Assembly (NCBI GenBank): GCA_019057815.1
Contig: JAHLWR010000004.1
Location: forward strand, 154,617 to 218,616
Length of the DNA: 64,000 nucleotides
Origin: Candidatus Heimdallarchaeota archaeon
Lineage (GTDB): Archaea; Asgardarchaeota; Heimdallarchaeia; Heimdallarchaeales; Heimdallarchaeaceae
Direction of reading: 5' to 3'
Each line of letters opens with the position of its first letter. The first letter of the stretch is position 1. The position numbers and the translations under genes are program-made. Below are positions 11,690 through 17,442 of the stretch, one piece after another. The notes beneath the pieces were generated by a model that saw only the letters and a list, made by a program, of their open reading frames with translations, ran no database searches and was not told the DNA's origin.

Positions 11690-12253
11690 TTATTCAGAAG
11701 ATGATTCAGCTGTTAATGGATAAAGAGTTGAAAATTTGGTTCTTTTAACATCTTTTACTTCCTTCTTGCAGATAGGACACATTCCTTTAAGTTTAATCCA
11801 AGTCATGTAGTGATTATAATGGAAAATATTTCCACAATCCAAACAAACTGTGATTACATCTTTCCTTTCTATTGAGATTCCACAAATGTAGCATTTAGTA
11901 AGCTCTTTTCCACATTGGGAACACTCATTTGTGCCATGAGGATTTTGGTGAGTATAGTAAGGGTACTTAGGAAGCCATCTAATAACCTTTTTAGGTAATC
12001 TGGAGGTTTTATAAACATATAATCTCGCGCTTGAGACTTTATCCCCGATTTGTTCTCTATAATCGATTAGAGGTTTGATTAAAGCAATACAGCAAACAAG
12101 AGCTGATAGAGCTATTCGTATTTCGATGTCCAGGTCTTGTGTTAAAAAGAACAGTGCGATTCCCACATAAAAAAGGAGAAGGTAATTTTTGACAACTATA
12201 AATTTCAGAACATCCCATATAGTTTCAGCAATCCTTATTGTTATGTTTTTCAA
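11690..12253 (-). CDS. Membrane-anchored ZnF-RING protein (putative E3 ligase)
   Basis: Two N-terminal TMs; CSQC-x6-CYIC-x12-CLDC-x4-H-x2-H-x3-W-x6-CPIC. Start is uncertain: TTG at 12253 chosen, ORF is open to 12295. Confidence 0.8.
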   Translation of the reverse strand: MKNITIRIAETIWDVLKFIVVKNYLLLFYVGIALFFLTQDLDIEIRIALSALVCCIALIKPLIDYREQIGDKVSSARLYVYKTSRLPKKVIRWLPKYPYYTHQNPHGTNECSQCGKELTKCYICGISIERKDVITVCLDCGNIFHYNHYMTWIKLKGMCPICKKEVKDVKRTKFSTLYPLTAESSSE

Positions 12254-12730
12254 CCAATTAATTTTGAAAAAACTATATTGAAGACAGAAACCCATGTTAA
12301 AGAGTTATATCCTAAAAAGAAAATCGAAATTAAGAGATTAAATTTTAATCAAAATTTTATGTTAAAGGCTGATCTACTATTCGAACAACTGATGATAAAT
12401 CTTTTAACAAATGCTGTAAAGAGCGATGCTCGTGAAATCGTACGAATAGAAATTCAACTAGAGGAATGTGCAGAAGGAGAATGCATCATCTCTATTTCCG
12501 ATTATGGTTGTGGAATACCAGAAGAAGAGCGAGAAAGCATATTTGCTAGATACTCAGAATTCAGAAAAAGAGGGAAGGGATCAGGATTAGGATTGTTCAT
12601 TGTGAAAAATATAATAGACAGATATAACGGCAAAATCTGGGTAGAAAACAGGGTAAAAGAAGATTTCACTCAAGGTACTGTTTTCAAAATAAAATTAAAT
12701 GAATGGAAAAAAAAAGAACAGAAAAAATGA
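12251..12730 (+). pseudogene. 5'-truncated sensor histidine kinase (HATPase_c only)
   Basis: N box NLLTNAVK, G1 DYGCGIP, G2 GSGLGL, ENRV...GTVF. No HisKA H-box or sensor domain; the upstream space is taken by the divergent RING gene. Confidence 0.75.
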
Positions 12731-14205: not shown

Positions 14206-16356
14206 CTAGTATTTGAGTGTAATAGTCTGGAAATAACTGGGGATTGAGATATCTTGGTGTTCTTTCCTAACCACTGTATCCTTGGGAGTATGTACCATTA
14301 TCTTCTTTCCGCTTAAATTTTCAATATATTCATCTAAAAGAGGAGCTGAAGTATGACCACTTATTTGAGCAGTGTAGATGTTTTGCTGATAAAGTTGCGA
14401 TGAGATTGGGTTAGATGTTCTTAGGGCATATCCTAAAGTATTTGGAGCTTGATACCCACAGAGCAAAACACCTGTTTCAGAATCTTCTCTTGTTGCTTCC
14501 AATAAACGACGGGCTGTACCACCTTGTAACATTCCATTGCCTGCAATTATGATATCTCCTTCTTCAAAATCTTCAGGGTGTAATGTTTTTGCAGTTGAAT
14601 AATCAGCTTTGACTCCCATTAGTTTAGTGATATCAGCAGACATACCTACAACTTTTACTTTATGTTTTTTTGTAACTCGCAATCTTTCTAATCTCTTTAA
14701 CATTTCTTGTGATCTACCAATAGAAAAAGCTGGAATAATCAATCTCTTCGATTCTTCAACAGCTTGAAGGATAGAAACATTAGGATCTTGAGCGTTAATC
14801 TCTCTATTGTAGTAAGTACCGTCGAAAATGGTCAGATCACAATCACTTGGAAATCTTGCTCCTTGGAAAAGCTCATTTCCATCTAGAGAGAAATCTCCGG
14901 TAAAGAAGATTCTTTTACCAAAAATATCTATATCAAAACCAAAACTGCCAAAAATGTGAGCTGCAGGATAAGGTGTGATTTCAAATCCTGGGCTAATTTC
15001 AATTGATTCTTTAGCTTTAATTTGATGAAAGACGTTAAACAAATTAACTAAATTTGATTCTTGCAAAAATGAACGATTGAGAGCGGTTAATTGGTTATCA
15101 GGTATATTGCTACCTTTGATTATCGAGGTAGTATTATAGAGAAGTTTACTCGTAAGAAGCTTTGTTGACTCACTAGCATACCAGTTTTTACCATTTTCAG
15201 AAGAAATAAAATAAGGTAAACAACCTGTGTGGTCCAAATGAGCGTGCGAAACTAGAACTGTTGAAACAAATCTCAAAGCGGGATGCCATCGAGGAATAGA
15301 ATAATTAGCTACACTAAAACCGCAATCAAGTAAAATAGCGTTGTTATTATGCTGGATTACAATACCCATATTACCTATCCCACCACCACCTAGAAAAGTT
15401 ATTTTTATTTTCTGAGCTTGTTTAGGTGAAGAATAAGCAAGTATAACAGCAAATTTTTGTACCATTTCTTTAGGATATTTCATCATTTCTTCTATATTTA
15501 CAGATTTAGCTTCGATTTTACTTAAATGAGGTTGAAAAACAGGATCTACTTGCATAGGAACAGGAGGATGACCTTCAGATTCAAACAGTAATTCGATTTC
15601 TTTTTCCAATTGTGCAATAGTTGTTTTTTCTTCCTGTACATGTTTTTTTGCGATGGTTTTTGCAGTGTTGTAAGATAAATCTGAAAGAGTATTGAAATCT
15701 ACAAAGAAGTCCAAATAGTTCAATACTGTGGAAGAAACGCTATCAGCAAGCTCTTCAATGTATTGATGTCTAGTGAGAAGATTTTTACTTGTTCTTTCAA
15801 TATTTATACATAATTCCTCCTCACTTCTATCCAAAATGGTATTGAATTTTAATTCAGAACAATATTCACTAAAATCGCTGTAAAAGATCGGTTTGAAACC
15901 TATTTCTCTAGAGAAATGCAGATAGCTGAGATAACTGATTTTTTGGGGCTTTTTACCAGAATTTACCAGAATTTCATTTATCCAAAAGAATACTATCAAA
16001 TCTTTGTGAGAGATTTTCTCTTCCTTAAACAAATTCTGCAAAACAGCACGATAAGTCTCAAAATTGAGTAAGTCTTTAAAATGCAAACCTGCGAGATAAG
16101 CAGGAATTAAATCCGAATATTCACTGTCTTTTTCGTTCCAAGAGAGTTTGAAAGTATTAATAATATCTTGATTATCACATAAGTAATAACTATCGGAGCT
16201 CTTTGTTTTGTAGTTATTTATCTCATTGATTATGTCTAAATAAATAACGTCAGTTTTTTTGCTGTCTATTCGAATATTCTCCTTTTCTTGTAATAATATA
16301 TCTGTAAAATCTAAGATGTTTGTCATGATTATCCACATTAAATGATATTGGAACAA
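14206..16356 (-). CDS. Metallo-beta-lactamase/beta-CASP ribonuclease with ~310-aa N-terminal extension
   Basis: LLDCG, SHAHLDH, AHIFG, FTGDF, DGTY, IPAFSIGRSQE, GYQA, SGH, VH. Probable start is near 16326. Confidence 0.9.
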   Translation of the reverse strand: MFQYHLMWIIMTNILDFTDILLQEKENIRIDSKKTDVIYLDIINEINNYKTKSSDSYYLCDNQDIINTFKLSWNEKDSEYSDLIPAYLAGLHFKDLLNFETYRAVLQNLFKEEKISHKDLIVFFWINEILVNSGKKPQKISYLSYLHFSREIGFKPIFYSDFSEYCSELKFNTILDRSEEELCINIERTSKNLLTRHQYIEELADSVSSTVLNYLDFFVDFNTLSDLSYNTAKTIAKKHVQEEKTTIAQLEKEIELLFESEGHPPVPMQVDPVFQPHLSKIEAKSVNIEEMMKYPKEMVQKFAVILAYSSPKQAQKIKITFLGGGGIGNMGIVIQHNNNAILLDCGFSVANYSIPRWHPALRFVSTVLVSHAHLDHTGCLPYFISSENGKNWYASESTKLLTSKLLYNTTSIIKGSNIPDNQLTALNRSFLQESNLVNLFNVFHQIKAKESIEISPGFEITPYPAAHIFGSFGFDIDIFGKRIFFTGDFSLDGNELFQGARFPSDCDLTIFDGTYYNREINAQDPNVSILQAVEESKRLIIPAFSIGRSQEMLKRLERLRVTKKHKVKVVGMSADITKLMGVKADYSTAKTLHPEDFEEGDIIIAGNGMLQGGTARRLLEATREDSETGVLLCGYQAPNTLGYALRTSNPISSQLYQQNIYTAQISGHTSAPLLDEYIENLSGKKIMVHTPKDTVVRKEHQDISIPSYFQTITLKY

Positions 16357-16457: not shown

Positions 16458-17327
16458 TTATTCCTCTTCGTCTTCTCTTGTATCGCTTTCTAATAATCCA
16501 CTGAAAGCATCACGAAGTTCGCTTTGAAGAGCTTCTTTCATTTGTGTTGTAGATCTTTGAGGAGCTGTGGGAGCGACAGGTGCAGGTTCAAATGGAGAAT
16601 CATCATCCATTTTATCAGACCTTGCTTGTAATTTCTGTTTTAATTCAGATTGGTAACCAAAAGGTGAAGCACCTGCACCACTTTCTAAAGCTTCCTTGTT
16701 TTGCGCTGCTTGTCGTTCTTTTTTATGTTCTTCAGGATCAATTTTAGTAAGACCCTCTATTGCGCCAGTAATCATGGAAGATGATGGACCACCCATTGGG
16801 TCTGTAGGAGCTGGACCTGCTGATTCACCCGGACCTCCTGGACCTGCTGATTCACCCGGACCTCCTGGACCTGCTGATTCACCCGGACCTCCTGGACCTG
16901 CTGGTCTTTCTGAAGGAGGAGCTTTTGATAAGGAACCTGCCATATTAGCTATCTCACTTGCAAATCCTGATCCAGCTAAAGGATTTCCACCTTGCGGAGG
17001 ATCACTTGAGGGACTTGGAGTTGAGGGTGCGGCAGATAAATTTGGTGCTCCGATGGAATCACCAGGAGGAGCTGCAGCAGATAAATTTGGTGCTGCTGCT
17101 GAAGGAGGAGCACCACTTGAAACAGAAGGACTTGCCATTGGTCTTCCACCTTCAAGAGCTAAAATTCTATTCTCTAATGAAGCTAAAGCATCTTCCATTC
17201 TTTCAGTAGACTTAACCATAATGGAACCTATGCTTTCAATTAACTTTGTAACTTTCAAGATAGCTTTTTTTGAGGATGCAGAACTTCCAGATGAAAGTAA
17301 GCCATCTAGATAATCATCAAGTGACAT
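16458..17327 (-). CDS. Pro/Gly-rich protein with N-terminal coiled coil, WH2-like motifs and acidic tail (candidate actin regulator)
   Basis: ATG start; coiled coil at aa22-60; motifs GFASEIANMAGSLSKA, SMITGAIEGLTKI, YQSELKQKLQAR; tail EDEEE. The CDS is confident, the function is inferred. Confidence 0.8.
   Translation of the reverse strand: MSLDDYLDGLLSSGSSASSKKAILKVTKLIESIGSIMVKSTERMEDALASLENRILALEGGRPMASPSVSSGAPPSAAAPNLSAAAPPGDSIGAPNLSAAPSTPSPSSDPPQGGNPLAGSGFASEIANMAGSLSKAPPSERPAGPGGPGESAGPGGPGESAGPGGPGESAGPAPTDPMGGPSSSMITGAIEGLTKIDPEEHKKERQAAQNKEALESGAGASPFGYQSELKQKLQARSDKMDDDSPFEPAPVAPTAPQRSTTQMKEALQSELRDAFSGLLESDTREDEEE
16811..16903. repeat. Perfect 27-bp tandem repeat, ~3.4 copies (encodes AGPGGPGES)
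   Basis: ctggacctgctgattcacccggacctc at 16811, 16838 and 16865, plus a partial copy at 16892. Confidence 0.97.
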
Positions 17328-17442
17328 TATATCAAGATAACTCTAGAAAGGAAATATAAAAAGTCTATGATTATGTTAGACTTCTACCAAAGGTTTAGTT
17401 AAAAGACTAAAGCAAGTTTTAACAAAAAGTTTCGATGGATAT

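Follow-up and report, generated by a model that had tools for sequence, protein, structure and literature searches.

The gene studied here lies at positions 16458–17327 on the minus strand of the window, which is the whole 64,000-nucleotide stretch of Heimdallarchaeota DNA that was analysed. The open-reading-frame list and the translation give a stop-free frame of 289 codons plus a stop, encoding a protein of 289 residues (P0001), for which about 60 homologues, mostly full length, were found. Gaps of ~100–115 nt separate the gene from its same-strand neighbours on both sides, and a TATA-like A/T-rich octamer can be read from the sequence at 17353–17360 on the minus strand, 26–33 nt 5′ of the ATG. 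The sequence suggests that the gene has its own promoter and that its mRNA is leaderless or has a short leader. Ser, Ala, Gly and Pro together account for ~52% of the residues of P0001, and the net charge of the protein is −17. A composition scan of all ORFs revealed that no other frame of the 3.7-Mb genome, the antisense frame of the gene itself excepted, contains a Pro/Gly/Ala/Ser-rich stretch comparable to that of P0001. When all genome ORFs were scanned by regular expression and composition for paralogues of the basic helix of P0001 and for other Pro-rich scaffolds, only the P0001 gene was returned.

An alignment of 33 sequences (A1; P0001 and 32 homologues) was used for AlphaFold2 (AF2) prediction and for column statistics. 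AF2 predicted helices at residues 3–12, 17–59, 122–133, 183–192, 198–216, 222–240 and 259–287, and the chain outside these helices has pLDDT values below 50 and is predicted to be disordered. The N-terminal module (residues 1–60, 17148–17327; all positions given for parts of the gene lie on the minus strand) is composed of a short helix (residues 3–12) and a long heptad helix (residues 17–59) with pLDDT of 86–92. A hydrophobic residue occupies nine of the 12 a/d positions of the heptad helix, and the module is probably a coiled coil for oligomerisation or partner binding. The following Ala/Pro/Ser linker (residues 61–118, 16974–17147; pLDDT below 50) is predicted to be disordered and contains two A-P-N-L-S mini-repeats (residues 79–83 and 94–98); P95, N96 and L97 are invariant in A1. 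Two short helical motifs are then separated by a second linker. The first is an amphipathic helix ending in L-S-K-A-P (residues 119–137, 16917–16973; AF2 helix 122–133), in which L133, K135, A136 and P137 are invariant. The second (residues 179–206, 16710–16793; AF2 helices 183–192 and 198–216) has a helix that terminates in L-T-K-I and, after it, a conserved tail of the form D-P-x-E-H-K/R-K-E-R; G192, L193, K195, H201 and R205 of this motif are invariant.

The C-terminal part of P0001 begins with a basic amphipathic helix (residues 222–238, 16614–16664; AF2 helix 222–240). E228, K230, L233 and R236 of this helix are invariant in A1, and the glutamate and the arginine are invariant across the order, as seen in a profile of the basic helix and the acidic patch that includes a sister-family copy (A5). 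The adjoining acidic patch (residues 239–248, 16584–16613) carries Phe246 followed by a proline; this position is Phe in 31 of the 33 sequences and Leu in the other two, and A5 and the divergent relatives show that the Phe is restricted to close genera and lost in more distant ones. The C-terminal amphipathic helix (residues 259–283, 16479–16553; AF2 helix 259–287, pLDDT ~82) is nearly invariant and is recognisable in all divergent relatives. The protein ends in an acidic tail devoid of aromatic residues (residues 284–289, 16461–16478), whose length and sequence differ between the homologues in A1.

The mean majority fraction per alignment column is 0.85 for the N-terminal helix, 0.80 for the basic helix and 0.98 for the C-terminal helix, 0.81 and 0.82 for motifs 1 and 2, and 0.38 and 0.33 for linkers 1 and 2. 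The conserved blocks indicate that the elements of P0001 are not chance features of one sequence, and the combination of conserved blocks with variable linkers is, at the sequence level, the pattern of a disordered protein with short functional motifs. The original prediction had listed, in this ORF, a coil at residues 22–60, motifs at residues 121–136 and 181–197, a basic helix at residues 224–238, a late helix at residues 262–279 and an acidic end, and each of these was recovered at its place by translation and AF2. It had also proposed examining homologues for conserved motifs in variable linkers, which is what A1 displays (0.80–0.98 for motifs and helices vs 0.33–0.38 for linkers). Its caveats were well founded: there are no true polyproline runs, the acidic tail has no Trp (none occurs anywhere in P0001), and the L-x-K motifs are degenerate (L-S-K-A and L-T-K-I). 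Beyond that prediction, the analysis revealed that a single repeat unit underlies both motifs, that the linker contains a conserved P-N-L mini-repeat, and that the acidic patch bears the conserved F246.

Two properties of the DNA would fit a non-functional, chance open frame in repetitive, GC-richer sequence. Within the region, Tandem Repeats Finder reports a perfect 27-bp tandem repeat of 3.4 copies (16811–16903) with 100% matches; the repeat encodes three identical 9-residue Gly/Pro units (residues 144–170). It is missing in all other homologues in A1, suggesting that it represents a very recent, in-frame and lineage-specific expansion of the linker. The opposite strand is also open, over 205 codons at 16696–17313 (plus strand); this antisense frame is most simply a by-product of the Pro/Gly/Ala-rich codon composition and not a second gene. 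These properties are countered by the ~60 homologues, with 36–47% identity and sharply block-wise conservation in the frame of P0001, by the near-universal presence of the gene in its own family, and by the confident helices predicted by AF2. The block-wise conservation pattern refutes the chance-frame or artefact explanation, the probability of which is negligible.

Regarding the distribution of the family, a word-index search returned 46 homologues with 36–76% identity, nearly all full length, and their database names are exclusively hypothetical proteins of Heimdallarchaeota/Heimdallarchaeaceae. The profile search of a 5.8-billion-sequence set that yielded the ~60 homologues showed a gap without matches between E values of 1e-57 and 0.1. 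An exhaustive phmmer search of 1.8 billion representatives found the P0001 family only. P0001 has no match among the Pfam and NCBIfam families, the top entries being a haemagglutinin (E 0.1) and a ribosomal tail (E 0.66), and a protein atlas gave only unnamed Asgard clusters at 0.80–0.81, below the useful range. Longer or fused forms of the family were searched for and none was found, which is weak evidence. Profile searching across 201 Asgard genomes located the gene in 20 of the 21 genomes of Heimdallarchaeaceae, the family to which the window belongs, and divergent homologues were present in two of seven genomes of one sister family and in the single genome of another, both of the same order. 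None was found in more than 170 searched genomes of other Asgard families. Among the genomes searched, the P0001 family is restricted to the order containing Heimdallarchaeaceae. Actin is present almost everywhere in the Asgard phylum according to the genome survey. Confinement to one order and the lack of the family in these >170 actin-bearing genomes argue against a core actin function and against an ancestral relationship to eukaryotic factors.

Comparison among relatives, by means of a profile of 29 instances of the helix and L-x-K unit (A3), revealed that the two motifs are copies of one repeat that occurs two to three times per protein in the family. One genus with closed genomes has three copies, of which the last two are nearly identical and are preceded by identical linkers, implying that they arose by tandem duplication in recent times. 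The D-P-E acidic/basic tail is borne by each of the two copies in a different genus. The repeat ends in LKKV in six members of A1, and the sister-family relatives have three tandem copies, two of which end in LKKV. Each copy in the relatives is preceded by Pro/Gly-rich sequence. Changes in the copy number of helix and LKKV units after Pro/Gly-rich lead-ins are what tandem-WH2 proteins display. An amphipathic helix that ends in L-K-K is similar to further motif classes too, MIT-interacting motifs among them.

The P-N-L mini-repeat varies in number as well, with two copies in P0001, one to five in the family and ~12 copies of an 11-residue unit in the sister family. The latter are tandem Gly/Pro units containing P-N-L in two sister-family homologues (L054:441-1625, plus strand, and L053; genomes G026 and G003). 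One TAA lies in the wider six-frame matched stretch of this divergent homologue, which makes its upstream gene boundary uncertain. An assignment of these repeats as PSAP-type or N-glycosylation signals was not retained, since conservation is limited to P-N-L itself. A match of one sister-family copy to EAD11 (23.9 bits, below the cut-off) lies over Lys/Glu-rich sequence and is probably compositional.

The likeness of the repeat to WH2 motifs was examined at the level of profiles. The Pfam WH2 family (PF02205; curated cut-off, 23.1 bits) gave no match at E ≤ 10 on P0001, on the 33 members of A1 or on five divergent relatives. When PF02205 was searched in six frames against the own genome and those of five relatives, including the ones bearing LKKV, the weak matches were all located at other loci. 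Searching all PDB chains with A3 at E ≤ 10 returned five unrelated sequences, and no WH2, thymosin, WASP, WAVE, VASP or Spire chain was among them. In the A3 alignment, the last hydrophobic turn of the helix lies ~3 residues nearer to the L of L-x-K than in what we take to be the canonical WH2 consensus.

In the original prediction, P0001 was described as a candidate WAVE/WASH/VASP-like actin regulator with a BRK1-like coil. That P0001 is a true homologue of WAVE/WASH-complex parts or of Ena/VASP, with a BRK1/CCDC53-like coil and a V-C-A or EVH2 module of common descent, is very improbable. In favour of such homology is CCDC53 (PF10152; Pfam cut-off, 24.6 bits), which matches five of the 33 members of A1 below threshold (best E 0.0076, 17.1 bits), in register at the N-terminal helix over profile positions 5–50. 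Two relatives score 21 and 25.5 bits, again in register and in the helix only. In addition, the elements follow one another as they do in the eukaryotic proteins, and one member of A1 has a match to the Myo1 central-acidic family at E = 1. On the other side, CCDC53 does not match P0001 itself, and nothing in the family matches the C-terminal half of the CCDC53 profile. Six-frame genome searches with CCDC53 scored the family helices at ~16 bits and unrelated ORFs at up to 18.9 bits. In the PDB, a profile of the N-terminal coil of the family (A4) retrieved a fly coiled coil, an adhesin stalk (E 1e-4) and influenza HA2 (E 7e-4 and weaker). The adhesin-stalk and HA2 matches span E values of 1e-4 to 0.1, and the matches listed are all coiled coils. 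No BRK1 chain was found among the best 60 of the 189 PDB matches of A4, or in the full PDB sequence-search lists at E ≤ 10. The matches to influenza HA2 and adhesin stalks cannot be homology and can only be analogy, and the likeness to CCDC53, which is no better, is at the level of generic coiled coils. After these controls, in which unrelated ORFs scored as high or higher, homology to CCDC53 was rejected. On its sequence, the N-terminal coil of P0001 is assignable as a coiled coil and as nothing more specific.

The C-terminal elements lead to the same assessment. The basic helix of P0001 presumably resembles the F-actin-binding block of VASP and the C helix of WASP. A search of the PDB with A5 at E ≤ 10 gave no WH2, thymosin, WASP, WAVE, N-WASP or VASP chain, and the Pfam families WH1 (EVH1) and VASP_tetra matched none of the 33 members at E ≤ 10. 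No acidic patch in the family contains the conserved Trp of the WASP-type acidic region, and the Phe is not kept beyond close genera. The absence of the family from every Asgard genome searched outside its order, among the 201, also speaks against common descent. Homology of P0001 to WAVE, WASH or VASP is thus not supported at the level of profiles. What stands of the regulator proposal is the layout, which is strengthened by the LKKV endings and by the two to three copies in relatives; membership of the named families has no statistical support in the profile searches.

Within its own family, the P0001 gene is found in the order threonine aldolase, P0001 gene and a beta-CASP metallo-beta-lactamase of ~700 residues. 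In sister families, the gene is flanked by others, among them those for a tRNA-intron endonuclease, BacA and a KaiC-like ATPase. As the neighbours change outside the family, the synteny reflects relatedness and not function; the neighbourhood was therefore rejected as a functional clue, one set of housekeeping genes being replaced by another. The downstream neighbour (14206–16356, minus strand) encodes a 716-residue beta-CASP metallo-beta-lactamase, the first ~300 residues of which have no Pfam match, with the catalytic domains starting from about residue 325. This long form also follows P0001 homologues in other genomes of the family. Elsewhere in the window, the gene at 11690–12295 (minus strand) encodes a 201-residue protein that is possibly a membrane-anchored, eukaryote-like E3 ligase: its N-terminal part has hydrophobic segments, and a zinc finger of the RING-H2 type (zf-RING_2, 26.9 bits vs a cut-off of 27.3) lies at the C terminus.

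The own genome contains a eukaryote-like actin (446 bits), two Arp-like paralogues (on C35 and C27, the frame on C27 having 490 residues) and two two-domain gelsolins (C30 and C16). An ARPC4-like gene lies on the same contig as P0001, outside the window (C1:24094-24405, plus strand), with a Pfam ARPC4 score of 41 bits, which is over the cut-off. The Pfam profilin family gave no match in this genome or in any control genome, which makes the result uninformative. A 176-residue ORF (C48:136893-137420, minus strand) that is rich in Glu, Lys and Pro, with short runs of proline and a basic helix at the C terminus, may encode another small disordered protein.

In the literature found, profilins and gelsolins are the only known Asgard actin regulators, and no nucleator or elongator is named. 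Full-text searches returned no paper that connects Asgard archaea to BRK1, to CCDC53 or to any nucleation-promoting factor. WH2-like LKDV motifs have been reported between the two gelsolin domains of Asgard gelsolins (PMC9433394; bioRxiv 10.1101/2025.11.30.690169). A study on Heimdall profilin worked with a peptide from VASP for want of a known native proline-rich partner.

P0001 is a conserved, order-restricted, disordered scaffold with a coiled-coil anchor and repeated short helical motifs. Its ligand can be considered from two sides. It is slightly more likely than not that P0001 is a lineage-specific scaffold or adaptor that docks partners other than actin, such as the MIT domains of ESCRT/Vps4 proteins, proteins of the ubiquitin system or of trafficking, or another complex, and that its likeness to actin factors is a coincidence of a common layout. 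The uniformly negative tests against actin-binder families, the narrow distribution and a gene context that holds nothing related to actin are consistent with such a role. Invariant surface residues of the N- and C-terminal helices also suggest specific partners, and a sister-family helix fits what we take to be the consensus of MIT-interacting motifs at four of six positions. Against it, there is no positive evidence for any particular partner and no Pfam, NCBIfam or PDB relative, and LKKV endings combined with tandem copies and Pro/Gly-rich lead-ins are more specific to WH2-type arrays. Non-actin partners are therefore collectively likelier than actin, with none of them individually supported.

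Actin is the single most likely ligand because of the endings in LKKV, the repeat units arranged in tandem after Pro/Gly lead-ins, the basic helix that follows them, and the occurrence of the family in an actin-bearing lineage with no known nucleator. In the AF2 model, the predicted short helices fall exactly at the motifs within the disordered chain, which is consistent with an actin ligand, as is the presence of actin, Arp-like, gelsolin and ARPC4-like genes in the same genome. P0001 is also the only strongly Pro/Gly/Ala/Ser-rich ORF of that genome. Weighing against actin, no statistical link to any actin-binding family is apparent from the profiles, the gene neighbourhood consists of housekeeping genes and differs outside the family, and the endings in P0001 itself are L-S-K-A and L-T-K-I instead of LKKV. 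That P0001 is an oligomeric, multivalent actin-binding scaffold is consequently a tentative proposal. Equally tentatively, Heimdallarchaeales may possess a native actin-assembly factor, in which a coiled coil is combined with P-N-L repeats and with WH2-like helices in tandem, that would gather monomers, perhaps as profilin–actin through the repeats, to nucleate or elongate filaments. Oligomerisation, binding to actin and any effect on polymerisation are putative properties of the P0001 family.

If actin is indeed the ligand, the following mechanism can be envisaged. P0001 would be a cytosolic, mostly disordered, modular scaffold. Its heptad helix at the N terminus, ~45 residues long, would most likely serve to assemble oligomers or to engage a helical partner. 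Short conserved docking motifs would sit on flexible arms rich in Pro, Gly and Ala, namely P-N-L, two to three helix and L-x-K-(A/V/I) units, the basic helix with the acidic patch, and the terminal helix. Each helix and L-x-K unit would hold one actin monomer, like a WH2 or VASP G-actin-binding motif, and the basic helix would contact a further monomer or a filament. Oligomerisation would bring the bound monomers together and might thereby seed or feed filaments.

Asgard archaea have eukaryote-like actin, and the P0001 family provides a concrete candidate for starting or elongating its filaments, with motifs that are amenable to point mutation. Should the proposal be correct, P0001 would be the first known non-eukaryotic nucleator or elongator, either convergent with or a very divergent relative of WH2-based factors. 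It would imply that multivalent actin assembly through helix and LKK(V) units exists in archaea, and would help to decide whether WH2-type logic is older than eukaryotes or readily arises by convergence. If actin is not the ligand, the family would represent a previously undescribed scaffold that is specific to one order and has short motifs of unusually high conservation.

Within the proposed mechanism, P0001 would be a functional analogue of tandem-WH2 nucleators and of the EVH2 module of Ena/VASP, and not a demonstrable homologue of either. Compared with the V-C-A module of the WASP family combined with a BRK1/CCDC53-type helix, P0001 shares an N-terminal helix, a disordered Pro-rich linker, helix and LKK motifs, a basic amphipathic helix and an acidic patch with an aromatic residue, and its genome has Arp-like actins and an ARPC4-like gene. 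It differs in lacking the Trp, in having a Phe only in close genera, and in having a coil with no BRK1 match and only generic likeness to CCDC53. The EVH2 module of Ena/VASP is similar to P0001 in the order of a monomer-binding-like helix, a basic helix ending in an Arg/Lys cluster and a terminal helix, with Pro-rich sequence upstream, and in multivalency through a coil, which is predicted in P0001. Unlike Ena/VASP, P0001 has neither EVH1 nor a VASP_tetra match, its long coil is N-terminal instead of C-terminal, and true polyproline runs are replaced by P-N-L and Gly/Pro units. The WH2-like motifs of Asgard gelsolins belong to the same phylum and are of a short L-K-x-V type proposed to touch actin, whereas they lie inside folded gelsolin-domain proteins with demonstrated actin activity and the motifs of P0001 lie in a disordered scaffold with no gelsolin domain. 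With respect to WH2/beta-thymosin proteins (PF02205; Spire, Cordon-bleu, N-WASP and VopL/VopF), the P0001 family stands apart by the lack of any HMM match, by the missing V in P0001 itself and by the presumably shorter spacing from the helix to LKK. It resembles them in the short amphipathic helix followed by L-x-K-(V/A/I), with LKKV in relatives of P0001, and it resembles tandem-WH2 proteins in units that follow Pro/Gly-rich disorder, occur in two to three tandem copies of changing number and are joined to a helix predicted to oligomerise.
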